The notes under the pieces are model-generated. The model ran no database searches, was not told the origin of the DNA, and saw only the letters and a list, made by a program, of their open reading frames with translations. A stretch of DNA of 25,901 nucleotides, taken from NCBI GenBank assembly GCA_029856365.1, contig JAHQWW010000046.1, forward strand, positions 1 to 25,901, in the 5' to 3' direction. This document shows, piece after piece, positions 966 through 19,876 of the stretch. Both the position numbers and the translations under genes were made by a program. Source of the stretch: Candidatus Hodarchaeota archaeon. Lineage in GTDB: Archaea; Asgardarchaeota; Heimdallarchaeia; Hodarchaeales; Hodarchaeaceae. How positions within the stretch are numbered: position 1 is the first letter of the stretch; each line of letters begins with the position of its first letter.

Positions 966-2387
966 GTGTTCTTCTTGACTGATATAATGATTAAAAATGC
1001 TACAATAATAACAGTTAATTCAAAAAATGAGGTGATTTCCGATGGAGGGATAATAATTGAGGGAAACGAGATCATCGATATTGGTACGATGGAGCAAATG
1101 AAGAAATATTTTACAGATGAGGTGGTCGACGCAGAGGGAATGGTAGTAATGCCAGGACTCATCAATTCTCACACACATCTAGCAATGACCTTATTCAGGG
1201 GGGTAGCTGATGATGTTCCAGGTATAAACTGGCTTCCAATAATTTGGTCAATTGAAAAGAACATTTCAGCAGATTTTTGTCATGTTGGTTCTCTTTTGGG
1301 TTGTTTGGAGATGATTAAGACCGGTACAACTTGTTTCGCTGATCAATACTGGCACATGGAGAAAACTGCTGAGGCTGTTCAGGAGTCTGGGATGCGTGCA
1401 AACCTTTCTCAAGGGATTCTGGAACTGAATGATCCCAACAAAGGAGAAAAAGACTTAGTAGAAAGTGTTACTTTTGCAAAGAAATGGAATAATTCGTTAG
1501 ATGGCCGAATCGTATGTAAATTAGGCCCCCACTCTATTTACACATGTTCACCTACATTACTTCAGAATACTCGTGAGGCAGCTGATAGTATTAATGTAGG
1601 CTTACATATTCATGTTGCAGAAGCCCCAAACGAATCAAAAATGGCTAAAAAAAGTCATGGTGGTACATCTATTGACCATCTAAACAGTTTAGGTATTTTA
1701 AAAGGGGATGTATTGGCTGCTCATTGTGTGTTTGTAAATGACCGAGACAGAGAAATTATGAAACGTACAAATACATCCGTTGCCCATTGTCCCTCATCAA
1801 TGATGAAATATGGTAATGAAATTGCTCCAATACCAGAATTAATTGATAAGAATGTTGTGGTGGGGATTGGAACTGATGGATGTGGAAGTAATAATAATCT
1901 TGACATGATTGAAGAGATGAGAACTGCTGCTTTTCTACATAAAATGAATAAAAAAGATGCAACTGTTCTTCCTGCTCACCAGATCATTCGGATGGCAACG
2001 ATTCTCGGTGCACAAGGATTAGGGTTAGAAAAAAGCATTGGTTCACTTGAAATTGGCAAGAAAGCTGATATTATAATAATAAATTTTAAAAAACCTCATC
2101 TCACTCCTTTCCATAATTGCCCTTCACATATTGTATATTCTGCATTTGGATCAGATGTTGACACAGTGATAATTGATGGAACCTTAGTTATGAAGAACAG
2201 GCAAGTCTTAACTTTAGATGAAATGAAAATTCTTGAAACAGCTCAGCAAGCTTTCGAAAAACTCCTCGAAATGGGTGGATATACTTCCAATTCTGAAAAA
2301 AATCCTAAACCAAGCTTTAAAACTAATTTAATAGTGAAATCATTTCAAACATACTTGAAAATTTCTCAAAAACTTAAAGGGGGGTAA
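966..2387 (+). CDS. Metal-dependent amidohydrolase, MTA/SAH deaminase (MtaD/AtzA/TrzA)-like, with a basic C-terminal extension
   Basis: MPGLINSHTH (HxH), PHSIYTC, HIHVAE, AAHCV, GIGTDG and GSLEIGKKAD motifs. True start may be TTG 976 region or ATG 987-990. Substrate is not certain. Confidence 0.88.
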   Translation: MFFLTDIMIKNATIITVNSKNEVISDGGIIIEGNEIIDIGTMEQMKKYFTDEVVDAEGMVVMPGLINSHTHLAMTLFRGVADDVPGINWLPIIWSIEKNISADFCHVGSLLGCLEMIKTGTTCFADQYWHMEKTAEAVQESGMRANLSQGILELNDPNKGEKDLVESVTFAKKWNNSLDGRIVCKLGPHSIYTCSPTLLQNTREAADSINVGLHIHVAEAPNESKMAKKSHGGTSIDHLNSLGILKGDVLAAHCVFVNDRDREIMKRTNTSVAHCPSSMMKYGNEIAPIPELIDKNVVVGIGTDGCGSNNNLDMIEEMRTAAFLHKMNKKDATVLPAHQIIRMATILGAQGLGLEKSIGSLEIGKKADIIIINFKKPHLTPFHNCPSHIVYSAFGSDVDTVIIDGTLVMKNRQVLTLDEMKILETAQQAFEKLLEMGGYTSNSEKNPKPSFKTNLIVKSFQTYLKISQKLKGG

Positions 2388-2439
2388 TTTTAATCTAAGA
2401 TTATTCAAATAATTATTCCGTCATGGAGATAATCCTTTA

Positions 2440-3750
2440 ATGAATATTCACAGATCCTCATTAACCGAAGAAAGAATCGAAACACCCTCTAACGAATTAA
2501 TACAAAAAGTCGAAAACATAATGACTTCAGGAATTGATCCAATCAAACATTTAAAGCAGATTAATTACCCAAGAAGAGCGGGAACTGAAGGAGACGAGAA
2601 GGCTGCTGATTATATATTCACAACTTTACAAGAATATGGATTTCAACCCAAAACCCAAGAATTTCATTTTCTAAGAATGAGAACTAGATTTACTCTAATA
2701 CTACCCCTATTATTCCTATGTTGGGGATTATTAAGTTTGATCAATATTTTATATTTGGAGAATAACCTAATTGTCTCTATTGTTATTCTTTCAGCACCGA
2801 CCACTGCATTATTAGTCTTATTTAAGCTTAATTTTTTTGTAAAGTATTTCTTAAGCAGAAAAGCAAAGCAGATGCAGAAGTTGGAAGACAAAATAAGAAA
2901 TCATGCATTGACAGAAAAAGAGAAAGCACACATTATGACGAGTAAAAATATCATTGCTGATGTCGGGACTCCTGAAGCAGAAAATCATATTTTATTCACA
3001 GCACACATTGACACAATTTCCTCAAAGCTTTCAATAAGATTCATTAAGAATCTTGGAATATTAGGCACAATTAGTTTTGGTGCTTATTCAGGAGCTTATT
3101 TATTGAATATATTCAGTGATTTCTTTTTACATTGGAATTTTATGATGGAATTTATCCCTTTATTCATAATTCTATTAATTCTTGTGTATGCATCGCTTGG
3201 GATTCTCTTCATATCCCAAAGTATGAGAAGTAATGAATCTCATGGCATTATTGACGATGGTACGGGGATTGCTATATTATTAGAACTAGCAAAGTTCGTA
3301 AAAGATCAGAATATTCAAAATCGGAAATTTATCTTTGGATTTTTCGGCGCAGAAGAAGCTGGATTGATTGGTTCTTCCAATTACTACCATAAAACTCAAT
3401 TTGATAAGAATAAATTACATGTGATTTCATTTGATATGATTGGGGAAAAAACTCCATTAGCTTATATAAAGGGAATTAATCCAATAATCAAGACACCTAT
3501 GGATTCTATGTTTAATTCGAATATTACTGAGGTTGCTGAGAGGCTGAATATTGAGATAAAAGGAATAAACTTCATTTATCCCGGATCTGATTTCGCTCAT
3601 TGGTTATTTGATGGATATAAAACAAATTGGTTTATCAACAATAGTAAGTTCATTCATTCAAAACATGATAATTTAAACAATCTAAATGAGAAATTGGTTA
3701 ACAATGCTTTAAGAATAATTATTGGTTACCTCATAGAATATTTATCTTAA
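2440..3750 (+). CDS. Membrane-embedded M28 family metallopeptidase
   Basis: PRRAGTEG, AHIDT, GIIDDGTG, AEEAGLIGS, FDMIG, GSDF and IHSKHD metal/catalytic motifs, with two hydrophobic hairpins inserted. Confidence 0.85.
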   Translation: MNIHRSSLTEERIETPSNELIQKVENIMTSGIDPIKHLKQINYPRRAGTEGDEKAADYIFTTLQEYGFQPKTQEFHFLRMRTRFTLILPLLFLCWGLLSLINILYLENNLIVSIVILSAPTTALLVLFKLNFFVKYFLSRKAKQMQKLEDKIRNHALTEKEKAHIMTSKNIIADVGTPEAENHILFTAHIDTISSKLSIRFIKNLGILGTISFGAYSGAYLLNIFSDFFLHWNFMMEFIPLFIILLILVYASLGILFISQSMRSNESHGIIDDGTGIAILLELAKFVKDQNIQNRKFIFGFFGAEEAGLIGSSNYYHKTQFDKNKLHVISFDMIGEKTPLAYIKGINPIIKTPMDSMFNSNITEVAERLNIEIKGINFIYPGSDFAHWLFDGYKTNWFINNSKFIHSKHDNLNNLNEKLVNNALRIIIGYLIEYLS

Positions 3751-5018: not shown

Positions 5019-5843
5019 TTGAAAAATTGTCAAAACTGTGCAAATGAGTTTCCTAATGATTATCTATTTTGTCCAAAGTGTGGAGTTAAATTTAGCGGTA
5101 AAGAATTGGTTAGCTTCGAAGATAAAGATTCAAACCTCATGGTAGCCTGTTATAATCTCCATAAATCCTATTTGATGGGAAAAACTGCAGTTAATGCCTT
5201 AAGAGGTGTGGATCTCAAGGTCAATATTGGTGACTTTATATCAATTATGGGGCCATCTGGTTCTGGTAAATCAACATTAATGCACCTCTTGGGAGGATTA
5301 GATTCTCCATCTCGAGGCCATGTAGTCATAAGAAACTGGGAAAACAAACTAGTTGAAATCTCAAACCTCTCAAAAAATGAATTATCAGCTATCCGACTTC
5401 ATGTAACGGGATTTATTTTTCAACAGTTCTATTTATTACCAACTCTCACTGCAGCAGAAAACATTGCCATACCATTAATTTTCACTGGAGACAAATCAGA
5501 TTCATTTACAAAAACACGAACAAGTGAATTATTAGAGCTGGTTGGCCTTTCAAAAAGGGATCATCATCTCCCTTCAGAACTAAGCGGGGGTGAGCAGCAG
5601 CGTGTCGCTATAGCTCGAGCATTAGCCAACGATCCACCCCTTGTTCTTGCAGATGAACCCACGGGTGATCTAGACTCTCGAACTGGTCATATGATAATAC
5701 AAATACTTAAGAATCTTAATAAAATGGGAAAAACAGTAATTATGGTGACTCATGACTCCAGCGTCGCTGAATACGCAAAAACAACAATAAATATGATTGA
5801 TGGGAGGTTCACTAGAGGTCAAAAGATTTCTGGTGAGGGATAA
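5019..5843 (+). CDS. ABC transporter ATP-binding protein (LolD/MacB type) with an N-terminal zinc ribbon
   Basis: Walker [10 protein letters not shown]-loop [19 protein letters not shown], Walker B LADEPTG, H-loop VTHD; N-terminal CQNC..CPKCG. Confidence 0.95.
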
Positions 5844-5845
5844 TT

Positions 5846-8653
5846 TTGAATAATTTACAATCACCTTTTAAACAGTTTATATGGATGTTAAAATTCATTT
5901 ATCGCGATGCAAAAAAACATAAATTAAGAAATGCGATTGGAATTGTATCTATTGGCTTAAGTATAGGACTTTTAGTCGCTATGAACGCTACTGTTGATAC
6001 TTTATCCAATTCATATGTTGATTTAATTTTAAATACAACTCAAGATTATGATTATGAGATAAACCCCTCAGAAGGAATTTTTATTACCAATTATTCATAT
6101 CTTATTTCAGAAATCAATGAGCTTAATGAGATAAATGATGCAACACCTAGATACATTTCTCAGGCGTTCATGAGGATTCGATATGAATCACACGACATAA
6201 TTGATATTCCTGCTGTTTTAATTGGATTAAATATTACTAAAGAAAATGAGTTACAAATAGGGAGTTTTGATCCCGAAATAAGAGAGCCAATTGGTATAAA
6301 TCAATGTTTATTGATTGGAAATTTCGGTAAGAATGTTAAAACTGTATTAAACGAGAATTTATCAATAAATCACTTCTATATCAATTTTCAGGATACTATA
6401 GGTACTACTCATGAACATAAACTGGAAATTTCCCAAGTTATTGAAGACGATCAAAGATTACCAGCAAGATTCAACGTCGTTGTCGTTGATCTATCATTGA
6501 TAGAATCGTGGGTACAAATTGATGAAATTTGTACTACTGTTATTGGTAAATTTCAAGATACATCTATTTACTCAGCCATTGATCCCGAAACTTCAGTCCA
6601 AAAAGCTCAACAATTGGCAATTAAGATTCAATCCAAAATTGGGTTTGAATATTCTGTTGTGTTGCCTAAAGCCACAGCAATTGAAGCTGCGGATTTCTCT
6701 GGAATAAGATTGCTATTAAACTTTATTGGGATTCTAATCCTTTTACTGTCTACTTTATTAATCTACAGTCTTAATACAATATCAATTGAAGAGAAGAACC
6801 GTGAGTATGGAATGTTACGAACATTGGGGGTCAAAGATTTAAAAATTTTAATGATACTATTCTTAAATCAATTATTCAGTGTATTTTGGGGTATAATTGT
6901 AGGATTAGGCTTGGGATATATTTTTAGCATGTTTATTTCAAACATCCTTCTCTCAAGTTTGGAAAAATACACTATAGCCATTTCAGCTCAAACCATCTTA
7001 TTCTCTACTTCTATTGGCGCTCTAGCTGGATTTCTCTCTGCAATAAAACCAAGTATAAGCTTAATTAACAGAAACATTGTATTATCATTAGAAGTAGGTC
7101 GTCATTATGATCAAGAATACTCGATCAAGCGGGAGCGGCGTGTTTCTAAGTCGATGGGGTTGGTCGGATTAGCAATAGCAGGTGTTGGTTCAATATTTTT
7201 TGTTATTTTCCCCTTACTCAATATCCTTGATGATCCAAATTTATCGCAAATATTGTTCCTAAGCTTACTATTGTCGTTCTTAATAGGATCTGTTCTTCTA
7301 GTTGTTGGCGTTGTTTCTCCGCTTTTTGAGGGAATTCTTGCTAAGATTCTAATGTTACCCAAGAAAACCCGTAAAATAGGAATTCTCACAAAGACTTTTC
7401 TGTTAAAAAACCAAAGACGTAATTCCTTAACAGCTACAATCTTTGCTTTAAGTTTAGCTTTCATACTATATTTGTCAATGTCTAATAGCCTTCAGAACTA
7501 TACGATGATGGAGAATCTTAGACATTATTATGGTTCAGATATTGTTGTTCAGTCATCTGGTGCAATTAATGACTATGTTGATCCTTCTGTAATTTCTTTT
7601 ATTAGGAATCATGAAAATGTCTCAGGAGTTTCTTATACAAGCGCTGGAAACATTCTCTTATTGATTGGATGTCAAACCTCGTTAGGAGATATGGCTTTAT
7701 TCAACTCGATCTCACCAAGCGGTATCTATGCAATACCTGATCAAGAATTTGGAAATAGCCTATATTCATCTCCGTCTGTAAATAATAATGCTTGGAAAAA
7801 TCTTGTAGGAAAAAATAACACAGTTGTTGTTTCTCGAGCAATTGTTGAACGGCTAAAGATAAAAATAAATGAATCAGTTCGATTAAAAATCTATAGTCAA
7901 GTTGAGAATAATAATGAACTTTATGGTAAAAATTTGAATCTGACTATTGTTGGGATTGCTGATCGTGTGCCTGGTTTTAATGATGTACATATTACCTCAA
8001 AATTCGCTGATTCTTCAGCAGTATTTGTTGGGAATGAAACTTGGAATACGATAATGAAAAATAAGAAATTGAATGTAAGCGAACAAATTACTGTTAATTC
8101 ACATATAGACAGGGTTTTTATCAGAGGAGTTAGAGATGATTCTGAAATAATTGAAAGCATTCAACTTGACTTATTCTTAGAATATGGAACAGCTATTCAA
8201 ACAATTCGTATAGATACTCTTCTAGAAGATCTTGTAGCTCAACAGGAAGACAGTCGTGAAACTTTATCAGTCATTCTTTCATTGAGTCTTATTATCGCCT
8301 TCTTTTCAATCTTTAGCAGCACCCAGACAAGCATTATTGAAGCTTTACATGAGATTGGGATCATTAAAGCTATTGGACTTAAAGAAAAGGAATTAATACT
8401 GGTCTTTATTTCACAGGCGTTGATTCTAACTTTGATTTCTACGATTCTTGGTGGCTTAGTTGGTTACAGCCTAGCTTATCTTCAATGGCTTCAGAGTGCG
8501 ATTTCAACCGAGTTTCCTATAACAATCATTGCACCTGACCCAATTGTTCTATCAATTTATCTGATTGCGCTGTTACTAAGTATATTTGGAACTTATCTAC
8601 CTGTAAGATCGTTAAAGCACAAAGAACCCTCAGAAATATTAAGAACACTTTGA
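5846..8653 (+). CDS. ABC transporter permease with duplicated MacB/FtsX modules
   Basis: Two FtsX-type motifs (EKNREYGMLRTLG; EIGIIKAIG), two extracytoplasmic domains, C-terminal PSEILR; 2 bp after the ATPase stop. Confidence 0.92.
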   Translation: MNNLQSPFKQFIWMLKFIYRDAKKHKLRNAIGIVSIGLSIGLLVAMNATVDTLSNSYVDLILNTTQDYDYEINPSEGIFITNYSYLISEINELNEINDATPRYISQAFMRIRYESHDIIDIPAVLIGLNITKENELQIGSFDPEIREPIGINQCLLIGNFGKNVKTVLNENLSINHFYINFQDTIGTTHEHKLEISQVIEDDQRLPARFNVVVVDLSLIESWVQIDEICTTVIGKFQDTSIYSAIDPETSVQKAQQLAIKIQSKIGFEYSVVLPKATAIEAADFSGIRLLLNFIGILILLLSTLLIYSLNTISIEEKNREYGMLRTLGVKDLKILMILFLNQLFSVFWGIIVGLGLGYIFSMFISNILLSSLEKYTIAISAQTILFSTSIGALAGFLSAIKPSISLINRNIVLSLEVGRHYDQEYSIKRERRVSKSMGLVGLAIAGVGSIFFVIFPLLNILDDPNLSQILFLSLLLSFLIGSVLLVVGVVSPLFEGILAKILMLPKKTRKIGILTKTFLLKNQRRNSLTATIFALSLAFILYLSMSNSLQNYTMMENLRHYYGSDIVVQSSGAINDYVDPSVISFIRNHENVSGVSYTSAGNILLLIGCQTSLGDMALFNSISPSGIYAIPDQEFGNSLYSSPSVNNNAWKNLVGKNNTVVVSRAIVERLKIKINESVRLKIYSQVENNNELYGKNLNLTIVGIADRVPGFNDVHITSKFADSSAVFVGNETWNTIMKNKKLNVSEQITVNSHIDRVFIRGVRDDSEIIESIQLDLFLEYGTAIQTIRIDTLLEDLVAQQEDSRETLSVILSLSLIIAFFSIFSSTQTSIIEALHEIGIIKAIGLKEKELILVFISQALILTLISTILGGLVGYSLAYLQWLQSAISTEFPITIIAPDPIVLSIYLIALLLSIFGTYLPVRSLKHKEPSEILRTL

Positions 8654-9302: not shown

Positions 9303-10718
9303 TTAAAGTTTGACCCCACAATAAACACAGTATTGTGTATTATGAACGATTTCGCGTCCACAGGAACTACAAGATCTCGTGGTTTTGGTACCACAATAAA
9401 CACAAAATTGTGTATTAGGGACGATCTCACGCCCACATGAGCTACAAAAATTCTGGAACTTAGCTACAGGAGTTGGATAACCATAGGGATAGCTAGGAAT
9501 CGTTGCTTCAGGAAATGTGAGGTCTGAAACCCAATCAGGTTCCTTCAAAGGGCCAGATTTTTTGAAAATGAAAAATGCTAGTATTCCAATTAAAAGAACT
9601 AAATATACAACTCTAATGACATATTGAAGAACTAATAGATTTCCATTTGACTCTCCAAAAAGGTCAAATATTAAGTCAAAAACAATGGATGCTCCCCCCT
9701 CAATTCCTATAAACCCTAAAGCAATCAAACATACTGGGAGAAAACGGGAGGAACGAATGTTCATATCAGTAAGAATTTGAACCCATGCGGGAGGGTAAGG
9801 AGACCTTCTTTTTAGTATCAATTGAATAATTACAACCACGGCCGTCACAACACCTACAATAAGGAATGTTAACACCCAAAATACGTAGAATAAGAAGAGG
9901 GTATCGTCGTTAAGTTCTTGTGACCTGACTAATCCTATCTGTGCTACAGCTGCTACTCCATTATTTAAACCATGTAAAATAATTGGCCAGATAACTCTAC
10001 GTGTTCGCATATAAATATAACCTAATGTTATTCCACCAGCAAGAGTCCCAAAAAAATGGATGATTGTAAAACCAATAGAACCAAATAATAAATCCTGAGG
10101 AGTGTGCATCAGAGAAAATAGTAGACTAGAAAAAAGCAGAACCCAAAAAGTTCCTAGACCTCGACGTTCTAAAAAGGGGATAAAAGATCTTCGAAAGACT
10201 ACTTCCTCACTTATTGAAGCTCCTATAACATACATACCAAAGAATAAGACATAAAAAAGCGGAATCCCTAGTAATTCTACAGTTGGCTCAAATGCTTCAT
10301 AAGGGCTTTTGAACGAATAACCTAACTCCTCGAAAATTGCCGCAAAAATTGCAATACAAAATGTAAACGCAGATAACAACGAATAAACAAGCAATAGTGT
10401 AATCAAATGAGAACCCGATGGCATATTCTTCTCCTCTGGTTCCACTTTCTTATTATTATATAGAAATATGAAAATTATAATGGATCCTATTTGCGCTATT
10501 ACATTGATTGCGAGATTAGCAATTGTCTGGATTGACTCAGAATCAATTTCAAGAATTTTAAGAATAGTTGCAGCGACAAGACTAAGAAGCGTTAAATATC
10601 CAGTTAAATCAGAGAATGACATAATAAATAGGATAATTGCAAAAGGATAAAGTAAATCTTTATCTTGAATTGCCGTTTCTAATTTATTTTCACTATATAA
10701 TTCATCTTGTTTATCCAT
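9303..10718 (-). CDS. CPBP (Abi / CAAX protease type II, Rce1-like) intramembrane metalloprotease with C-terminal tandem zinc ribbons
   Basis: EEVVFR, FSLMH and HGLNN motifs in a multi-TM protein; C-terminal 2x CSSCGREIVxNTQxCVYCG. Confidence 0.9.
   Translation of the reverse strand: MDKQDELYSENKLETAIQDKDLLYPFAIILFIMSFSDLTGYLTLLSLVAATILKILEIDSESIQTIANLAINVIAQIGSIIIFIFLYNNKKVEPEEKNMPSGSHLITLLLVYSLLSAFTFCIAIFAAIFEELGYSFKSPYEAFEPTVELLGIPLFYVLFFGMYVIGASISEEVVFRRSFIPFLERRGLGTFWVLLFSSLLFSLMHTPQDLLFGSIGFTIIHFFGTLAGGITLGYIYMRTRRVIWPIILHGLNNGVAAVAQIGLVRSQELNDDTLFLFYVFWVLTFLIVGVVTAVVVIIQLILKRRSPYPPAWVQILTDMNIRSSRFLPVCLIALGFIGIEGGASIVFDLIFDLFGESNGNLLVLQYVIRVVYLVLLIGILAFFIFKKSGPLKEPDWVSDLTFPEATIPSYPYGYPTPVAKFQNFCSSCGREIVPNTQFCVYCGTKTTRSCSSCGREIVHNTQYCVYCGVKL
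9316..9447. repeat. Imperfect intragenic direct repeat (about 57 bp, 75-bp period) encoding the duplicated zinc ribbon
   Basis: ccacaataaacaca...ttgtgtatta...acgat...ccaca...ctacaa at 9316-9372 and 9391-9447. Confidence 0.85.
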
Positions 10719-10752
10719 ATCTGTTCACAAATCATTTAGTTTTAGTCGATAA

Positions 10753-11685
10753 TTAATATATGAAAAAAACTCCAAAGAAGAAAGCCCCTAATGCCCACCA
10801 TAGAGACCAACGGGTATACTTACGCGCTTTCTTCCCACCTGACGAAGGGGATTCTGTAATAACTGTGATGGAAGTTATTCCCAGAATAATAACTAAAGCT
10901 ACAAGAAAAAACCAAAATACTAAGTTATTATATTCCAGAACACCTACAATTGCTGCACAAATTACAGTAACGGTAAAGAATATTATCGCAACATAAGCTG
11001 CATTTTTAGGACCAAATTTAACTGCCAACGAGTTGAGATTAGATTTTAGGTCTCCTTCATAATCTTGGATATCTTTAACAATTTCTCTCCCAGTTGCCAA
11101 GAAAAATGTAGCAGCCATCATTAACAAACAGCTCAGGATAATTATATCATCTTGGGGTCTTAACAGGAAGAAACCTATAAAGAGAGGAGCAACGTAACCA
11201 ATTGAGACCCACATATTGCCAAAAAAACCATATCTTTTGACATAATTATATCCAACTCCTACAATCACACAGAATAACGTTGTGAGTACAAGAAATATTG
11301 TAACATCAAACGCAATTACTAAAATTGCTGAAATTAGAATTGAAATAGAATACATAACAATACATAATATCATCACATATTCAGGTGAAAAAGCCCCCCG
11401 AGCTATTGGACGATCGAATCTCTTATTTGCAATGTCTGTCTCAACATCATAAACATCATTTGTAGCTTCTATAGCAGAAGCAAGTAATAGGGTCGCAAGC
11501 ATCCCCAAGCTCAAACCTTGGATGTTTATAACACCATTCTCGAATAGGAATAAGCCAAAATCTGGAGGATCGCCTCTTAGCACAAACACGATAAAACCAG
11601 CTGCCAATACCGTAATAGAACTTAAAATACCTAATGAAAATCTGAATAAGTCCATGTAGTCCTTAATTCGCGTTTTTACTGCCAT
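10753..11685 (-). CDS. UbiA family prenyltransferase, digeranylgeranylglyceryl phosphate synthase (DGGGPS)-like
   Basis: NDVYDVETD..NKRFDRPIARG, YNYVKRYGFFGN and REIVKDIQDYEGD (DGGGPS-type second acidic motif); multi-TM. Confidence 0.88.
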   Translation of the reverse strand: MAVKTRIKDYMDLFRFSLGILSSITVLAAGFIVFVLRGDPPDFGLFLFENGVINIQGLSLGMLATLLLASAIEATNDVYDVETDIANKRFDRPIARGAFSPEYVMILCIVMYSISILISAILVIAFDVTIFLVLTTLFCVIVGVGYNYVKRYGFFGNMWVSIGYVAPLFIGFFLLRPQDDIIILSCLLMMAATFFLATGREIVKDIQDYEGDLKSNLNSLAVKFGPKNAAYVAIIFFTVTVICAAIVGVLEYNNLVFWFFLVALVIILGITSITVITESPSSGGKKARKYTRWSLWWALGAFFFGVFFIY

Positions 11686-11702
11686 AATTTTATCTTTCCA
11701 CT

Positions 11703-14015
11703 TTAATAGCGCTCTTTTTCTTTCATTGACTGATTTAGGTAGTTATTGACGACGTTCTTTTCAGTTTTGCCAAGGTAAAACCAATCAAAAATTAAGTCAT
11801 CAATAATTTCTTGTTTATTAGAAAAATCTGCTTCAGGATTTGCTTTTAATAATCCAATTATTTCATTCACCTTCTCTACTACTTGATTTTTTAACTTCTC
11901 GAAAAAACTATTTTTCTCCTTGGTAGTCGGTAATCGGATTGGTAGTCTTTTAAAATCCTCTGGAGTGGCATGTCCGCTCATACCACCAAGAGAAGTATTG
12001 ATAACTTTCCCTAGGAAGTAACTAGCAAGTTTCGAATTCAAATAACCTAGAATAAACTCGGTTTCCAATGTTATTCCATATAACAGATTACTATTCCCAG
12101 CCACAATAGAATGTTCAACTAGAGTTGCTTTTATTATACCTTCGTGTGCATTTGTTGTTATTCCCCTCTTGAAGTATAGATGAGGATTTCGAAAGACTGC
12201 TTTTCTCCCTCTTGATTCTCTCGCCTTTTTTTTTATTTGATTGACTGAATCAACACTCCAATCGATATACCATCCCTCTGTACCCCAATAAGGAAAGTAT
12301 GAACCTCTTTCAAAAGGAACTAGAAATTTTTTTCCCACAATGCCATTATGTCTATAGCATTCTAATGTCTCTTCATCTAAATCAGCTAGATTTATAATTT
12401 TGCCAGCATTAAGAACCCGATATTTTTCAACTTTCGTACTATGTTGGTGTTTTAATTTTTCCCAGAGTGGTGAATCCTGTATGATCACCAAGTGAGAATA
12501 ATTATCACCAGTTGAAATACCTTCCCCTCCACCAATATGGTGTCTTAATTCTTCATATTTCCAACCTTTAATAATATTGGTTGATTTCATTGAATTAGTG
12601 AATCTCATTATTTTAACAAATTTAGGATTTACATTAATCCAGAATGGATTTCCATTTATTCCCTCGTATTCTGCCTGATTAATAAACTGAACGCGATTTT
12701 TTTGGGGAATGAAATAATCTGATTGATTCTTAAGGCGATCAACCAATCTAATTCTATTGCTTCTTCGATCACGGCAAGATACACATTCACAATGACTTTT
12801 AATCTGTTGCTTAGAGTTTGTTGCCTCGTGACTATATCCCTTCTCACATAATTGCTTAGTTAAAGTGATTATACAAGTTCGTGAGATTGTCATTGGTCTG
12901 AAAAGGTCAATAGGGGCAAGTAAAATTTCATTAATCTTACAAGTGTCTAAGATCAGTCGTCTAAGGGTGGTATGAGATCGTAACGAGAGAAAAGTATCAC
13001 TGATTAAGAAACAAATTCGACCTCCATTTTTCACTCTCCTTACAGCATTTGCCAGAAAATATCCATAAAGGTCATTTCCACTTATTTTATAGCTATAAAC
13101 GCTCGCTTGGTCTCTATAGATTTTTTGATACAATTTTCTATCTTCAGAGGAAATTCTTTTCCCGTAGGGGGGATTTCCAATAATACAATCGTAGCCATCG
13201 CTATCGGTAACACCATTAAGATCCATTAATTTTAGAGTATCAGAGTTGGTTATTGTTGATCTACTTTTTATTTGCTCCCCAATACATAAAAAGGTTATTC
13301 GAAGATTTGAAAGAAGTACGGCAAATGGGTCAATATCGTTGCCCCAAACTTGAGAAATTGCCCTTTGAGTAGCGCTGATTTCGTCACTTCCTTGATTAAA
13401 GAGTTTTTCCTTAATCTGAGTAATACTTGCCTCTAGAAAATGTCCACTTCCGCAAGCAGGGTCGAAAACGGTTGAAACTGAAGATAGATTTAGTTTTGAC
13501 ACCATATAATCTACTGTTTCTCTAGGAGTGTAAAACGCCCCAAGAGCTTGTTGACGATGACATAATCTCAAAAGTTCTTGGTAAATCGCTCCTAATTGAT
13601 GGTAACTTAGTTTTTCAAAGTTATATCTTTTAAAATACTTAATTAAAGTCGTTTTTGTTTTCTGTGTAGGATTTAGATAATCGAAATCCGTTTTTGGAAG
13701 GTTGAGTTGAAAGTCAGATGCATTATTTCTACTATTAAGATATCTATATAGAATTTGCTTACTTAAATAATTTAATGAGGCTCGGGATACAATCTCTCTT
13801 TCTATTTTCTTTTCAGAATTGAAAAATGTTTCTTGTTTAAATTGAGAGAGTAATTTTGTTAAGGATTCATGAGTGTCTTCCTTATATTCTTTCCCATCCA
13901 AATCTGTAAGCTCTCTCTGGATTATTCGCTTGATTTGACTAGTTAAAGACTCTTGGACAGCAGAAGTGATTACAGGAAGTTCTCGTATTAAGTTTTTAAA
14001 TGAATGATCAGTCAT
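11703..14015 (-). CDS. Orphan N6-adenine DNA methyltransferase with a C-terminal target-recognition region (Eco57I/PglX-like)
   Basis: GAFYTP, FDPACGSGHF (SAM binding), GNDID, IGNPPY (catalytic), DLYGYF and LGYLNS; no recognisable nuclease domain. Confidence 0.88.
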   Translation of the reverse strand: MTDHSFKNLIRELPVITSAVQESLTSQIKRIIQRELTDLDGKEYKEDTHESLTKLLSQFKQETFFNSEKKIEREIVSRASLNYLSKQILYRYLNSRNNASDFQLNLPKTDFDYLNPTQKTKTTLIKYFKRYNFEKLSYHQLGAIYQELLRLCHRQQALGAFYTPRETVDYMVSKLNLSSVSTVFDPACGSGHFLEASITQIKEKLFNQGSDEISATQRAISQVWGNDIDPFAVLLSNLRITFLCIGEQIKSRSTITNSDTLKLMDLNGVTDSDGYDCIIGNPPYGKRISSEDRKLYQKIYRDQASVYSYKISGNDLYGYFLANAVRRVKNGGRICFLISDTFLSLRSHTTLRRLILDTCKINEILLAPIDLFRPMTISRTCIITLTKQLCEKGYSHEATNSKQQIKSHCECVSCRDRRSNRIRLVDRLKNQSDYFIPQKNRVQFINQAEYEGINGNPFWINVNPKFVKIMRFTNSMKSTNIIKGWKYEELRHHIGGGEGISTGDNYSHLVIIQDSPLWEKLKHQHSTKVEKYRVLNAGKIINLADLDEETLECYRHNGIVGKKFLVPFERGSYFPYWGTEGWYIDWSVDSVNQIKKKARESRGRKAVFRNPHLYFKRGITTNAHEGIIKATLVEHSIVAGNSNLLYGITLETEFILGYLNSKLASYFLGKVINTSLGGMSGHATPEDFKRLPIRLPTTKEKNSFFEKLKNQVVEKVNEIIGLLKANPEADFSNKQEIIDDLIFDWFYLGKTEKNVVNNYLNQSMKEKERY

Positions 14016-14021
14016 TATTGA

Positions 14022-15560
14022 TCAATCAATATACAGAATTGCTTCTAATGCTCTCTTCCAACGAGTTATTTTTTCAACACGTTTTTGAGAATCCAGGGAG
14101 GGATGAAAGTGTTGTGGCTCCATCTTTGAATATATCTCTTTTAGCTGCTTTTTGTCTTGCCAAAAGCCAACACTTAATCCTGCTAGGTATGCTGCTCCAG
14201 TCGCAGTCATGTCTGGTTCTGGGGCACGTATAACTTCCAAATTAGCAAAATCAGCAAGGCATTGCATCATAATATCTGATTTTGAAACTCCACCATCAGC
14301 TCTAAGCGAACGAATTGGTATTTTAGTATCCTTTTCTAAACCCTCAAGAATATCTACAAGTCGAAGCGCTATTCCTTCAAAAACAGCTCTTGCTACATGG
14401 CTACGATGTGTGTTTAATGATAATCCCAAAATGGTTCCTCGTGCATTAGGAAAAAAGTAAGGGAATCGTATCCCTGAAGGTGTTGGTATAAAAATTACTC
14501 CCTCTGTATCCTCACACTTTGCTGCATATTCATTCAGAATTTTTGGTGTATCACTTAACCCAATTCCTTGGCCAAGCCAGTCTATCAATGTACCTGCAGT
14601 AGCAACAAATCCCTCAAGCATATATGTTCCCCTTCCATTAATTACCCACGCAACAAGAGGAAATAAACCTCGTTTTGAGAGCTTTCCTGTTTTCCCTACG
14701 TTCATATCAACAAAACTCCCTGATCCTTGAGAGATTTTTACATCTCCTTGTTCAAAACAACATTGTCCAAAGAGGGCAGCCTGTTGGTCACCACACGCAG
14801 CGCGAATTTGAATCTCAGCTCCGTGAAATAAATTAGGATCAGTAGTTCCATAGTTGCCGTTCGTATCTTTTAATTCAGGAAGAATTTCTAATGGAATGTT
14901 AAAAATGTTTAAAATGGGTTTATTCCATTTTAGTTGAAAGGGATTTAAGAGTCCTGTTGCTGCATTACTATAATCAGAAGCATGAACTTTTCCCCCTGTT
15001 AATTTGTAAATAAACCAAGAATCAATAGTTCCAAAGGCTATCTCTCCTACTTTACATCGTTCGTAAAGGCCTTCAATATTATCTAAGACCCAACATAGCC
15101 GTACAGTAACATGATCTGTGGTGTAATTAAGCATAGAAGTTGCAGTAAGCATGGTATTTCGGGTAATTCTACACGCGACCCAAGCAAACTTCTTTAAAAG
15201 CCGCCATTTCTTATTTTTATTCATCTGATTGCATGTATCTACTGCACGAACATCAGCCCAGTTAATGAAGTTGATAACAGGTTTTCCAGTGTCTCTTTCC
15301 CAAAGTGTGAAGCTAGCACGTTGATTTGCAATTCCAATTGCTGCAATATCCTTTGGAGATACCTCTGGGTTCTCAAAGATTCGATTGACAATTGTAATTA
15401 ATGATTGCCAAAGCTCGATAGGATCATGTTCAATCCACCCTACTTTTGGATAAAGCGCCGTTGTTTTTTGATACTCACGGGCAATTATTTCTCCCTTTTT
15501 GTTAAACAGAACTGCTCGAATACCAGTTGATCCACTATCAATTGCCAGAATGTAATGCAT
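14022..15560 (-). CDS. glpK: FGGY family glycerol kinase, GK5-like subtype
   Basis: AIDSGSTG, NQRAS, FGTIDSW, GDQQAALFGQCC, LRADGGVS and TGAAYLAGLSVGFW. Confidence 0.88.
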   Translation of the reverse strand: MHYILAIDSGSTGIRAVLFNKKGEIIAREYQKTTALYPKVGWIEHDPIELWQSLITIVNRIFENPEVSPKDIAAIGIANQRASFTLWERDTGKPVINFINWADVRAVDTCNQMNKNKKWRLLKKFAWVACRITRNTMLTATSMLNYTTDHVTVRLCWVLDNIEGLYERCKVGEIAFGTIDSWFIYKLTGGKVHASDYSNAATGLLNPFQLKWNKPILNIFNIPLEILPELKDTNGNYGTTDPNLFHGAEIQIRAACGDQQAALFGQCCFEQGDVKISQGSGSFVDMNVGKTGKLSKRGLFPLVAWVINGRGTYMLEGFVATAGTLIDWLGQGIGLSDTPKILNEYAAKCEDTEGVIFIPTPSGIRFPYFFPNARGTILGLSLNTHRSHVARAVFEGIALRLVDILEGLEKDTKIPIRSLRADGGVSKSDIMMQCLADFANLEVIRAPEPDMTATGAAYLAGLSVGFWQDKKQLKEIYSKMEPQHFHPSLDSQKRVEKITRWKRALEAILYID

Positions 15561-15787
15561 ATTGATCTCTTCAATTTTTAGAAACTTTTAATCTTGAGGA
15601 AATGATTATTGCAATTTTCACTCCTCTGTTTTCTTTCAATTTAGTCACATTATAAATATATCTCGAAAAAAATGTGTCAGATAAGGAGGATTTTTTAAGT
15701 GGCAAATCTTCAGCTTAATTGTAAATTTTCATTTGTTGACTGGAATATTTCTCTTAAGATTTAAGTAAAATATAAAGTGATTAAAAC

Positions 15788-17056
15788 ATGCCAGAACAAC
15801 AAAAAGTGTTTATTGCCGGAGGCACCACCACACCCTTTGATTATCCATTAAATCTTCAAATTGAAGAGATGGTGGCGAATTGTATCCGGCAACTCTATAA
15901 AGATGTCCCTGAGTTTCATCTGAAGGATGTCAGGGATAACGGAATGGTAGTTTACTCCCATTTCTCAGTCCACTTTAGTCATCAGTTAACTGCTTATTGG
16001 ATTTTGCACGATCATCTTGGACTTGTAGGTGTTCCCCACTTTCGAATCGATAATGGTGGCAATACGGGTGGCTCCGCTTTGTATGCTGCCTATGCTCTTG
16101 TGCGAGCAGGGCTCGCAGATGTTGTTCCAGTAATCGGATACGAATTAATGGGTTCTGTTTCACAAAGTAAAGGATCAGAATTCATTGCCATTGCGTCAGA
16201 TACTAGATATGAAGCAATGCTTGGAGCCAATTATACCAATTACTATGCAGGATTAGCACGGGTTTTTATGGAAGAATATGGATTAACAGAAGAAGATTTC
16301 GCTGAAATAGCAGCCAAAAATAAAAATAATGCCGTAGCCACAGGTGAAAAAGCTCAGCATTATCGTAAAGTCGGAAATAAATTGACTGTTGAAGATGTCA
16401 TGAATAGCCGATTAATTTCCTATCCACTAAAAAAATGGGATTGTTGTTTTATGTCTGAGGGAGCCGCAACAGTCTTAGTGTGCAATGAACAGTTTGCTAA
16501 GCAATATTCTCCTGACTATTATGTTGAGATTGTTGGAGCAGGTTTATCATCTTGCACTATTCGTGCAGGTGATCGTTATGCCTTTCCAGGATGGACAGAA
16601 CGATACGGGGAAGGTTACCCTGGACTAGGAGAATTCGCTGCATGTCGTCATTCCGCGGAAGTCGCGTTCAAAATGGCTGGTATCGAATGGAAAGATTCCT
16701 ACAAATATTTAGACGTAGCAGAAGTACATGATGCCTTCTCAACCTCTGAATTCCAAATATACAATGCTCTTGGTTGGTGTCAGTCAATTACGCCAAAACA
16801 ATTCATTCGAGACAGAATGCCCATGATGGAAGGCGAAATTCCCACAAACCCTGGTGGTGGGCTTATTGGTTACGGACACCCAGTTGGGGCTACTGGATTA
16901 ATGTCTACTGTCGAATGTTACTACCAGCTCGCAGGTTTGATTTCAAGAGAGCACAGATCAACAGATAATGAAGTAAAAGATGCTGAAGTTGGTTTAGTCA
17001 ATTCTCATGCAGGGACAGGAACATCAATTAGCAATTTCATATTAAAGAGAGTGTGA
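15788..17056 (+). CDS. SCP2-type thiolase-fold protein lacking the nucleophilic cysteine
   Basis: AKNKNNA, DCCFMSEGAA, EVHDAF, NPGGGLIGYGHPVGATG and SHAGTG; the nucleophile loop reads DNGGNTGG instead of xxACASG. Confidence 0.88.
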   Translation: MPEQQKVFIAGGTTTPFDYPLNLQIEEMVANCIRQLYKDVPEFHLKDVRDNGMVVYSHFSVHFSHQLTAYWILHDHLGLVGVPHFRIDNGGNTGGSALYAAYALVRAGLADVVPVIGYELMGSVSQSKGSEFIAIASDTRYEAMLGANYTNYYAGLARVFMEEYGLTEEDFAEIAAKNKNNAVATGEKAQHYRKVGNKLTVEDVMNSRLISYPLKKWDCCFMSEGAATVLVCNEQFAKQYSPDYYVEIVGAGLSSCTIRAGDRYAFPGWTERYGEGYPGLGEFAACRHSAEVAFKMAGIEWKDSYKYLDVAEVHDAFSTSEFQIYNALGWCQSITPKQFIRDRMPMMEGEIPTNPGGGLIGYGHPVGATGLMSTVECYYQLAGLISREHRSTDNEVKDAEVGLVNSHAGTGTSISNFILKRV

Positions 17057-17061
17057 GGTGA

Positions 17062-17733
17062 ATGTTGATGGAAAAGAATTTACATCCAACCCCAAATAAC
17101 AAAGATTTTATCTGGGAAAAATGGATTAAACTAAATGAAAAAATTCCTGAAAAAGGTTGGACATGGCAGAATGTTCGCTCAGGTATTGCGGGGAACGTCG
17201 AATGGATAGAGCAGCAAATCTATTATGACATGTTATATACTTTCAGGTTAGGTGCCTTAAGTCCATACGCTAAAGGATTACTAGAAGGAAAACTACTTGG
17301 TACAAAATGTCCAAAGTGTGGTGACATAACATTTCCTCCTCGAGTCAATTGCTGGCGGCTTGACTGTAATCTTGAAATAACAGAGTGGATCGAAATGCCA
17401 CATTCGGGAATTCTACATACTTTCACCATCTGTGGCTTTGCTGCCAAAAGTGCGTTGAAGAAGTTACCTTTTGTTCTTGCATATGTTCTTGTTGGGAAGA
17501 GTAAGACTGCAATTGCGAACATATTAAAAATAGCAGAACCTTGGCACGTGGAATCAGATATGCCAGTCATTGTAAAGTTTACTGAGAAGAAGCGAGTCGG
17601 TAACCTTATTGACTTCTGGTTTGAACCAGATCCAAGCTGGCATCCATCTCCAATGACTCCTGAAAAGGAACGAATTAAAAAATTATGTGAACCTGTTTAT
17701 GAATGGATTAAGATATTAAAGAGGAGTATTTAG
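17062..17733 (+). CDS. DUF35 family zinc-ribbon / OB-fold protein (thiolase partner)
   Basis: GKLLGTKCPKCG..FPPRVNCWRLDC, EWIEMPHSGILHTFT and PFVLAYV; GAGGTG SD overlapping the thiolase stop. Confidence 0.9.
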   Translation: MLMEKNLHPTPNNKDFIWEKWIKLNEKIPEKGWTWQNVRSGIAGNVEWIEQQIYYDMLYTFRLGALSPYAKGLLEGKLLGTKCPKCGDITFPPRVNCWRLDCNLEITEWIEMPHSGILHTFTICGFAAKSALKKLPFVLAYVLVGKSKTAIANILKIAEPWHVESDMPVIVKFTEKKRVGNLIDFWFEPDPSWHPSPMTPEKERIKKLCEPVYEWIKILKRSI

Positions 17734-17734
17734 T

Positions 17735-17752
17735 CTTTTTCACATTTTTTTG
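17735..17752 (+). terminator. T-rich terminator candidate after DUF35
   Basis: tctttttcacattttttt directly after the stop codon. Confidence 0.4.
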
Positions 17753-17884
17753 ATTATTCTTTAGAATTTAGTTATGTACGTTAAATCATAATCGAACTGA
17801 ATTGATTAGATAATTTTAATTATAAAAATAGTATATAATGAAAAAGATCATATTTTAAAAATCTAGGTAATAGAATTAGCAATC

Positions 17885-19876
17885 TTGGTGGTGAAGATCT
17901 TGCCTAAATTACTTTGGGCACCCTCTGAGGAGCAAATCAAACAAACAAACATGACTGGTTTCATTGAGTTTGTGAATAATGAATATAATCTTGATTTGAC
18001 CTCTTATCATCAACTCTATAATTGGTCTATTGAAAACATTCCAGATTTTTGGGCAGCAATGTGGGATTATGGGGGAATTATTGCTTCTAGAAAGTATAAA
18101 ACGGTGGTTGACAACTTTGATGACTTTTTTACCGTTGAATGGTTTCCAGGCGCACGATTAAATTTTGCAGAAAATTTATTACGATATCACGATGATAAAA
18201 ACCACCTTGCTTTCATATTTCATGGGGAAAATCAAAGATCAAGAAGAATGACTTACAGCGAGCTCTTTTCTCAAGTTACACGATTTGCCAAAACATTACA
18301 TGAGTTAAATGTTACTCTTGGAGATTGTGTTGCTGGCTATATCCCGAATTTAATAGAGACAGTAATAGCTATGTTGGCTGCTACAAGTCTTGGAGCAACA
18401 TGGGCATCTTGTGGAGCGGAGCTAGGCCCAACAGCTGTCTTAGATCGCTTTAGCCAGATAGAGCCCAAGATTATAATCACGTCTGATGGATATTTCTACA
18501 AAGGAAAAACATTTTCCAGTATAAATAATGTTGAACAGGTTATCAGGGAACTACCTTCTGTAGAAAGAGTTATAGTGACCCCCTATATTAAAGAAACTCC
18601 AAATATTGATACTATTCCTCATTCCACACATTATTTGGAGTTTCTAGCTCCAGAAACCCATCCGCATATTAAATTTGAACAATTACCCTTTTCTCATCCT
18701 GGTTATATTATGTTTTCTAGTGGAACGACTGGAAAACCTAAGTGTATGGTTCAAAGCACGGGAGGAGTCTTACTTACTCAATTAAGAGATTTAATATTGC
18801 ATACAGATGTAAAAAAAACCGATCGAATCACCTACAACACTTCACCTTCTTGGATGATGTGGAATTGGCTGAACTGTTCACTAGCGGTTGGAGCGACTAT
18901 TTTACTTTATGATGGAAATCCACTATATCCTGATTGGGGAGCTATGTGGAAATTAATTCAAGGTGAAAAAATTACAATTTTTGGCACAAGTGCTAGTTAT
19001 CTCCATTATCTAAGTGGGATTGGCGCTCAACCAGGTAAGAAGTATGATTTGTCCTCTTTACGGGTAATCTCTCAAACTGCCTCACCCATATCATCAGAAG
19101 CAATGGAATGGCTCTATAAAGAAGTGAAGAAAGATTTTCATTTCAATTCAATTACTGGAGGGTCTGATCTTAACGCAATATTTGCAGGGGGGTGCCCAAT
19201 CCTACCGCTTTATGCCGAGGTACCCATACAATGCCGAGCTTTAGGGATGAAGGTTGAGGCGTATAATGATAAAGCTGTAGCTGTTAGAGATCAGCAAGCA
19301 GAACTTGTAGTAGAACATCCATTTCCTAGTGCTCCATTGTACTTTTGGAATGATCCCAAGAATAAGAAGTATGAACAAGCATATTTCACTTTTTTCAAAC
19401 CAACGGGTAAAACAGTCTGGCGACACGGGGATTATATTATCATCCATCGTGAAACGGAGGGAATAACCGTCTTTGGAAGGTCGGATGCGGTTTTGAAACC
19501 TTCTGGAGTTCGTATTGGAACATCAGAGATTTATAATACTGTGGAAACATTACCTGAGATTGAGGATAGTCTTGCCATAGGACAGAACTGGAAGGGAGAT
19601 CAAAGAATCATTCTCTTTGTAAAAATAACCGAAGGTTATTCTTTAACAGAAGAATTAAAGAATAAGATTAAGAAAATTTTACGAGAAAAGGCCTCACCTC
19701 GCCATGTTCCTACATTAATCTTAGAAACACCTGATATCCCATATACATTCTCAATGAAAAAAGTTGAAATTGCAGTCACAAATATTATTCATGGCAAACC
19801 AGTGACAAATCGAGGTGCATTATCCAATCCAGAATCGTTGGATTTTTTCGAAAAAATTCGTTTTGATTTAGTCTGA
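17885..19876 (+). CDS. Acetoacetyl-CoA synthetase (acetoacetate-CoA ligase)
   Basis: WFPGARLNFAENLL, YIMFSSGTTGKPKC, WMMWNW, WRHGD, GRSDAVLKPSGVRIGTSEIY, SPRHVP, KKVEIAV and ALSNPESL. Start may be TTG 17900 after GGTGGTGA. Confidence 0.93.
   Translation: MVVKILPKLLWAPSEEQIKQTNMTGFIEFVNNEYNLDLTSYHQLYNWSIENIPDFWAAMWDYGGIIASRKYKTVVDNFDDFFTVEWFPGARLNFAENLLRYHDDKNHLAFIFHGENQRSRRMTYSELFSQVTRFAKTLHELNVTLGDCVAGYIPNLIETVIAMLAATSLGATWASCGAELGPTAVLDRFSQIEPKIIITSDGYFYKGKTFSSINNVEQVIRELPSVERVIVTPYIKETPNIDTIPHSTHYLEFLAPETHPHIKFEQLPFSHPGYIMFSSGTTGKPKCMVQSTGGVLLTQLRDLILHTDVKKTDRITYNTSPSWMMWNWLNCSLAVGATILLYDGNPLYPDWGAMWKLIQGEKITIFGTSASYLHYLSGIGAQPGKKYDLSSLRVISQTASPISSEAMEWLYKEVKKDFHFNSITGGSDLNAIFAGGCPILPLYAEVPIQCRALGMKVEAYNDKAVAVRDQQAELVVEHPFPSAPLYFWNDPKNKKYEQAYFTFFKPTGKTVWRHGDYIIIHRETEGITVFGRSDAVLKPSGVRIGTSEIYNTVETLPEIEDSLAIGQNWKGDQRIILFVKITEGYSLTEELKNKIKKILREKASPRHVPTLILETPDIPYTFSMKKVEIAVTNIIHGKPVTNRGALSNPESLDFFEKIRFDLV

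Follow-up and report, generated by a model that had tools for sequence, protein, structure and literature searches.

The window, i.e. the whole 25,901-nucleotide stretch of DNA analysed here, is contig C43 of a Candidatus Hodarchaeota archaeon assembly (4.24 Mb, 84% complete; genome labelled G000). Between positions 9303 and 15560, it carries four minus-strand genes, which encode in order of transcription a GK5-type FGGY kinase, a DNA adenine methyltransferase, a UbiA-family prenyltransferase resembling DGGGPS, and a protease of the CPBP/Rce1 fold. We consider it probable that the core of this locus is a genus-restricted membrane operon of two genes, the DGGGPS-like UbiA and the CPBP protease, and that the GK5-type kinase and the orphan methylase sit in a variable slot upstream of this pair.

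Conservation of the UbiA-CPBP gene pair

The orthologous locus was compared in 17 other genomes of the same genus, together with two GK5 loci. UbiA is followed by CPBP in all 16 loci where both genes are visible. The gap between them is 0-39 base pairs (bp) in 14 of the 15 loci measured, and the order is held while identity drops to ∼55% for UbiA and ∼35% for CPBP. The full four-gene order, in contrast, is found in only 5 of 17 loci, and UbiA-CPBP alone is constant. What turns over is the slot, defined as the UbiA-strand stretch between UbiA and a divergently transcribed thiolase-like operon, whose thiolase-like gene has an orthologue close to UbiA or GK5 in 13 of 17 loci. The slot holds GK5 and the methylase in this genome, G007, G011, G009, and G014, the methylase alone in G008 and G015, GK5 alone in G020, GK5 with a GH3 glycosidase in G021, and a DinB-family gene with a GH5 glycosidase in G016 and G001. 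It is empty in G003, G018, G013, G002, G005, and G019. In congeners that have neither GK5 nor the methylase, an AT-rich divergent region of 400-430 bp directly parts UbiA from the thiolase-like gene. Because UbiA-CPBP is constant while the upstream content turns over, the conserved unit is the UbiA-CPBP pair, and the kinase and methylase are accessory to it. GK5 may have occupied the slot from early on and then been lost repeatedly.

Both members of the pair are duplicated in tandem in some congeners. G008 has two UbiA copies (locus L040, contig G008:C75, positions 1498-3444), which are 67-70% identical to the window protein, whereas G016 and G001 have two CPBP copies (locus L044, contig G016:C3, positions 5162-8002) downstream of their GH5 and DinB-family genes.

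In the window, the gaps separating the four genes, from kinase to CPBP, are 6, 17, and 34 bp. Genome-wide statistics, computed from a crude gene set, show that gaps of ≤34 bp separate 37% of same-strand neighbour pairs, and that there are 41 runs of at least four co-directional genes in which every gap is ≤34 bp, comprising ∼5% of ∼3550 genes. With so many comparable runs in the genome, the spacing is operon-like but not exceptional. Small open reading frames (ORFs) that could encode a peptide substrate or precursor were found neither in the 227-bp divergent region upstream of the kinase nor within or beside the UbiA-CPBP pair. A scan for sigma-70 promoters and terminators, whose bacterial model is unsuited to archaea, returned fewer promoter-like sites than in shuffled sequence. 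The initial annotation had described four co-directional genes with these same gaps, which the ORF coordinates confirm, and had put forward synteny across Asgard genomes as a check on their linkage. Of that linkage, the UbiA-CPBP part holds in every congener where the pair is visible, but the four-gene order is largely not conserved, an outcome that the annotation itself had named as a refutation.

The prenyltransferase and the protease

The UbiA-family gene (positions 10753-11685, minus strand) encodes a protein of 310 amino acids (aa) matching the UbiA profile with 130 bits, and is one of about eleven genes of this family in the genome. It scores below every NCBIfam DGGGPS cut-off, with 86 bits on the equivalog model NF009521 (cut-off 296) and 71 bits on NF009522 (cut-off 353). 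A paralogue on contig C94 reaches 178 bits on NF009521 and is also closer to the Methanocaldococcus jannaschii DGGGPS of known structure (6M31), with 133 bits as against 47.5 bits and 20% identity for the window protein. In a maximum-likelihood tree, which was midpoint-rooted and includes few named references, the C94 gene falls in a clade with a named haloarchaeal DGGGPS (support 96/91), whereas the window UbiA groups with two other Hodarchaeales paralogues (C183 and C160 types). An exhaustive HMMER search against 1.84 billion representatives returned only ten proteins at E ≤ 1e-30, and the named ones are all from Hodarchaeales. In NCBI, the names given to orthologues of the UbiA, kinase, and CPBP proteins include Candidatus Hodarchaeales/Hodarchaeota archaeon and Heimdallarchaeota archaeon B3_Heim. 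By score and by closest homologue, the genome's best DGGGPS candidate is the C94 gene, not the window UbiA.

By fold and motifs, on the other hand, the window protein resembles a DGGGP synthase. It has the UbiA fold with all three motifs, of which the first and third are the Asp-rich Mg2+/diphosphate motifs and the second is Y..K, and the patterns NDxxDxxxD, YNxxK, and KDxxDxxxD are invariant across 32 UbiA relatives. Its AlphaFold2 model (mean predicted local distance difference test score, pLDDT, of 91.7) superposes on the M. jannaschii DGGGPS structure with a Z score of 30.7 over 279 of 280 residues, as compared with 24.6 and 21 for other UbiA structures. Because of these invariant motifs and the DGGGPS-matching predicted fold, the window UbiA looks functional and probably works like a DGGGPS-type O-prenyltransferase. 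A basic C-terminal motif of the GGKKARKYTRWSLW type (residues ∼283-296) is invariant in, and common to, the window-type and C183-type paralogues, and may bind an anionic group of the acceptor. The third paralogue of this Hodarchaeales clade lies directly between genes for a myo-inositol-1-phosphate synthase and a BpsA_C + AdoMet-decarboxylase fusion, all on one strand (C160:38595-42128; L056:5596-9129); a UbiA enzyme in such a neighbourhood of inositol-phosphate synthesis may make an inositol-linked lipid. A literature search on Hodarchaeales lipids and prenyltransferases found nothing relevant.

The CPBP gene (positions 9303-10718, minus strand) encodes a protein of 471 aa with a PF02517 domain scoring 65.9 bits (cut-off 22.4). 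Across 26 orthologues, no substitution occurs in the six residues that form the EExxxR, FxxxH, and HxxxN motifs (E171, E172, R176, H205, H249, and N253). The AlphaFold2 model (pLDDT 84) consists of a CPBP core with two further transmembrane helices on its C-terminal side, a disordered linker rich in Pro and Tyr, and a double zinc ribbon at the C terminus; no aligned orthologue lacks a zinc ribbon, and the closer ones carry a pair. When the model was compared with 48,161 PDB representatives using VIA-align, the top match was SpdC (Z 10.8, root-mean-square deviation (rmsd) 4.8, 220 residues aligned), followed by Methanococcus maripaludis Rce1 (Z 9.7, rmsd 4.6, 204 residues aligned), after which came short helical matches with Z ≤ 8.1. 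A Foldseek search of the PDB with the same model gave no significant match, and phmmer against PDB chain sequences found no CPBP/Rce1 chain at E ≤ 1, only weak zinc-ribbon matches. Both by domain and motifs and by its Rce1-type helical fold, the protein thus belongs with the CPBP/Rce1-like glutamic intramembrane proteases and, judged by its residues, appears catalytically intact.

A pool of CaaX substrates for such a protease could not be detected in this 84% complete genome. Among ∼4800 crude ORFs, Cys is not enriched at position -4 (67 occurrences, as against 52-88 at neighbouring positions), and a terminal CaaX box is absent from all 51 ORFs that resemble small GTPases. The whole genome has 14 matches to the CPBP/Rce1-like family and 17 to the ICMT family, none of them beside the UbiA-CPBP pair, and one weak match to the prenyltransferase beta-repeat. 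One ICMT-like gene adjoins a PlsC-like acyltransferase gene (contig C204, ∼82.8-84.1 kb). The literature on Asgard Rce1 and prenylation yielded nothing relevant, and a review of plastid prenylation mentions neither UbiA nor CPBP partners.

From these properties, we propose the following model. The core would be a two-gene membrane operon, limited as sampled to one diverse genus of Hodarchaeales (Heimdallarchaeia), in which a DGGGPS-like UbiA gene is followed within 0-39 bp by a gene for a CPBP/Rce1-fold protease with a cytoplasmic zinc ribbon. With a polyprenyl diphosphate as donor and Mg2+ bound at its two Asp-rich motifs, the UbiA paralogue would O-prenylate an acceptor embedded in the membrane that is not the bulk-lipid intermediate. 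The product would be a minor, specialised isoprenoid lipid or a molecule linked to a lipid. The co-expressed CPBP protein would cleave or scaffold a membrane-associated partner. Between this pair and the divergent thiolase-like operon lies a slot whose contents differ by species, and in this genome and its nearest relatives the GK5-type kinase and the methylase are accessory genes riding the same transcription direction. The kinase would serve general metabolism by phosphorylating glycerol or a related polyol, and would not supply UbiA.

Neighbouring genes and lipid genes elsewhere in the genome

The kinase gene (positions 14022-15560, minus strand) encodes a full-length FGGY protein of 512 aa with FGGY_N and FGGY_C domains (Pfam/NCBIfam). 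It falls short of the curated whole-protein cut-offs of both GlpK models (TIGR01311 and NF000756), with 478 bits where 498 are required and 473 bits where 590 are required. The genome's canonical GlpK is another FGGY gene, on contig C34, which exceeds both cut-offs with 771 and 711 bits, respectively. A study of FGGY specificity gives Arg83, Glu84, Tyr135, Asp245, and Phe270 as the signature that contacts glycerol (PMC3245297). The C34 protein keeps all five residues, whereas the window kinase keeps the equivalents of Arg83, Asp245, and Phe270 but has Ala at the Glu84 position and Asp at the Tyr135 position, and so falls outside GlpK by signature as well as by score. The alignment shows the same throughout its clade, with Ala, Gly, or Ser at the former position and Asp, Glu, or Thr at the latter, and the clade also has a basic-aromatic insert of 16 residues. 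In view of the sub-cut-off scores, the two changed residues, and the insert, the clade is probably not one of plain glycerol kinases. NCBI labels the orthologues "glycerol kinase 5", and we found no usable biochemical substrate data in the GK5 literature.

GK5-type orthologues (55-60% identity) are patchy in Asgard lineages, Bathyarchaeota, Leptospira, and other spirochaetes. Among 300 Asgard genomes, 16 have GK5, all from the target genus or one other family, in whose GK5 loci no UbiA, CPBP, or thiolase-like gene adjoins. Within the genus, GK5 is present in 9 of 22 genomes, whereas canonical GlpK is nearly universal. The window kinase is 57-59% identical to Leptospira proteins, and across the clade (which includes P0151, P0159, and P0172) the Hodarchaeales-Leptospira identity equals the closeness to other Asgard families. 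The patchiness of the distribution suggests horizontal transfer.

Between the kinase and UbiA lies the methylase gene (positions 11703-14015, minus strand), whose product of 770 aa has N6_Mtase (100 bits), Eco57I, and TaqI_C matches. Its translation contains DPACGSGHF, which is S-adenosylmethionine-binding motif I, and the catalytic motif NPPY, as befits a stand-alone gamma-class N6-adenine DNA methyltransferase. The best PADLOC matches are type II methyltransferase models, relatives in the PDB comprise M.TaqI and type I M subunits, and no nuclease gene adjoins. We considered BREX PglX, for which the protein scores 79.8 bits against a cut-off of 500, is 770 rather than ∼1200 aa long, and has a kinase and a prenyltransferase instead of BREX genes as neighbours. 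A type IIG enzyme was likewise rejected on score, length, and context. Of 17 congener loci, 7 have the methylase in the corresponding place. It appears to be an orphan DNA adenine methylase that was inserted in one sub-clade, between GK5 and UbiA, and has no visible link to lipid chemistry.

Upstream of the kinase, an AT-rich intergenic region of 227 bp (positions 15561-15787), the presumed promoter region, separates it from a plus-strand operon (positions 15788-19876) encoding, by profile matches, a thiolase-fold protein, a DUF35/zf-ChsH2 protein, and an acetoacetate-CoA ligase. The initial annotation had suggested that these genes could supply acetoacetyl-CoA. The ligase assignment is confident (815 bits, cut-off 639), but thiolase chemistry is doubtful because, in an alignment to thiolase 7yvy, the thiolase-fold protein (within positions 15788-17733) has Asn (NGGNTGG) in place of the nucleophile Cys. 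It may be a non-thiolase enzyme, e.g. of aldolase or scaffold type. This protein is 86-96% identical across the genus, far above its neighbours.

The genes for archaeal lipid synthesis were found elsewhere in the genome. G1PDH is encoded on contig C154 (282 bits on NF002022; its best PDB matches are G1PDHs, with 168 bits for 5fb3 and 142 bits), a divergent PcrB/GGGPS-family gene lies on C112, and CarS on C46. With the DGGGPS-like gene on C94, the set of archaeal lipid-pathway homologues is apparently complete. On C94, a GlpD-type sn-glycerol-3-phosphate (G3P) dehydrogenase lies ∼7 kb from the DGGGPS-like gene (L054:6530-8176 and 14154-15074, respectively) and adjoins a GlcD-like FAD oxidase and a TatD nuclease. 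The genome also encodes bacterial-type PlsY and three PlsC-like acyltransferase homologues (contigs C19:25844-26422, C185, C33, and C204), families without a match in four archaeal control genomes.

These results bear on the gene labels and on the function first proposed for the cluster. The families had been assigned correctly, but the labels "glycerol kinase" and "DGGGP synthase" go further than they should, since for each function the genome has a better candidate at another site, of which the window gene is a paralogue. The proposed coupling of G3P supply to an ether-lipid prenyltransferase is not supported, given the GK5 type of the kinase, the canonical GlpK on C34 and the closer DGGGPS homologue on C94, and the presence of GK5 in just 9 of 22 genomes. 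A search of the genome for G1PDH and GGGPS, which had been put forward as a check, found G1PDH, a GGGPS-family gene, and CarS, which also counts against this coupling.

Alternative explanations and comparison with known systems

The proposal just discussed, i.e. a dedicated operon in which the kinase makes G3P and UbiA builds G3P-based isoprenoid ether ("chimeric") lipids, is very unlikely to be right, even though several observations fit it. The genes are tight and co-directional, GK5 is beside UbiA in 7 of 7 genus genomes having both, the UbiA model is most like DGGGPS, and the PlsY/PlsC homologues make G3P lipid chemistry plausible in this organism. Moreover, DGGGPS is reported to accept G3P-based geranylgeranylglyceryl phosphate (GGGP), so it is not the step that fixes chirality, which is set mainly by GGGPS (PMC9385802, a review). 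However, no GGGPS-like gene is present in the cluster to put the first chain on G3P, and G1PDH, GGGPS-family, DGGGPS-like, and CarS genes are all present in the genome. The kinase, with its low GlpK scores and altered Glu84 and Tyr135 positions, coexists with a canonical GlpK, is missing from 13 of 22 genus genomes, most of which still have UbiA-CPBP, is separated from UbiA by a methylase or GH3 gene in most genomes, and is unlinked to UbiA in another Asgard family. We give even slightly less weight to a locus for lipid head-group remodelling or salvage, in which GK5, GH3, and GH5 would act on the polar part of a lipid class re-prenylated by UbiA, the kinase acting for instance on prenyl- or alkyl-glycerol. 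Although the genes that occupy the slot include three for enzymes acting on polyols or sugars, and the GK5 clade, minus two glycerol-hydroxyl ligands and plus its basic-aromatic insert, might suit a bulkier or membrane-bound substrate, the slot is empty in six genomes and holds the methylase alone in two, and such a reading of the insert is speculative.

A prenyl-protein processing module, in which UbiA would lipidate a protein or peptide and the Rce1-like protease would trim it by analogy with eukaryotic CaaX processing, seems hardly more credible. The strict UbiA-CPBP adjacency, the Rce1 fold with its intact catalytic residues, the 17 ICMT-family matches with one weak beta-repeat match, and the placement of the organism in the archaeal order proposed to be closest to eukaryotes would all be in keeping with it. 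Yet we know of no UbiA-family enzyme that prenylates proteins, the UbiA fold best matches a lipid synthase, and most studied prokaryotic CPBP proteins have roles other than CaaX processing. Neither an enrichment of Cys at -4, nor a CaaX box in the GTPase-like ORFs, nor a small precursor ORF in or beside the pair was found. Better placed, but still unlikely, is the absence of any functional coupling, i.e. four unrelated neighbours kept by descent in one genus, with short gaps reflecting a compact genome. The frequency of short gaps and the 41 similar runs agree with this, as do the synteny of flanking genes outside the cluster, the locus of G010, where CPBP is kept without UbiA, and the sister-family UbiA relatives, which have no CPBP neighbour. 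Against it stand the persistence of UbiA-CPBP while everything upstream turns over, the tandem duplications within the pair (UbiA in G008; CPBP in G016 and G001), the gaps of 0-39 bp despite identities down to 55 and 35%, and the equally narrow phyletic range of the two families.

The two-gene membrane operon that we favour must itself be set against several observations. All of the UbiA-CPBP synteny evidence comes from one genus, and the wider block (adenosine kinase, thiolase-like operon) is partly conserved too, so that descent alone could explain the adjacency. In G010, moreover, GK5 and CPBP are kept while four unrelated genes replace UbiA. Because both sub-clades of the genus have GK5 at the locus (e.g. 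G020 and G021), the order may originally have been GK5-UbiA-CPBP, and since GK5, GH3, and GH5 act on polyol or sugar groups, there could be a shared lipid head-group theme.

Asgard lipid genes are studied for clues to how eukaryotes gained bacterial-type membranes, and this locus had looked like a link between G3P supply and ether-lipid synthesis. Such a link is not a conserved pathway here. The analysis nevertheless leaves a clean, if modest, lead in the DGGGPS-like paralogue, which is specific to this lineage and invariably accompanied by a protease of the Rce1 fold. At its most ambitious, and we regard this as quite improbable, the pair, sometimes with a GK5-type kinase or glycosidase upstream, would be an undescribed Hodarchaeales membrane system making or recycling a special prenylated lipid or anchor, possibly attached to a protein and then processed by the protease. 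Prokaryotes would in that case have a forerunner, or an analogue, of the processing of prenyl anchors in eukaryotes.

Each of the four proteins shares defining features with a known system and departs from it in others. Like GlpK, the window kinase is a full-length FGGY kinase (385 bits to Staphylococcus aureus GlpK), but Glu84 and Tyr135 are replaced, 16 residues are inserted, and both scores are below cut-off. As compared with GlpK and the animal GK5 subfamily, its type is patchily distributed and has a separate canonical GlpK in the same genome. With M.TaqI-like and Eco57I-methylase-like orphan type II enzymes, the methylase shares motif I, NPPY, and a TaqI_C-type recognition domain; it differs in its length of 770 aa, its uncharacterised N-terminal 135 residues, and the lack of an adjacent partner nuclease. 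The CPBP protein shares with Rce1 (4CAD) and SpdC (6U0O) the EExxxR, FxxxH, and HxxxN motifs, invariant in the window type, and a fold match over residues 17-321, to which it adds two C-terminal transmembrane helices, a disordered linker, and one or two zinc ribbons. Unlike Rce1 sensu stricto, it has no detectable CaaX substrate pool in this proteome. Finally, the window UbiA has the N62/D66/D70-type, Y..K, and KDxxDxxxD motifs of DGGGPS (6M31; motif definitions from PMC9385802), but belongs to a separate Hodarchaeales-only clade with an invariant basic C-terminal motif of the KKARKYTRW type, and its gene is, in congeners, always followed by that of the CPBP protease.

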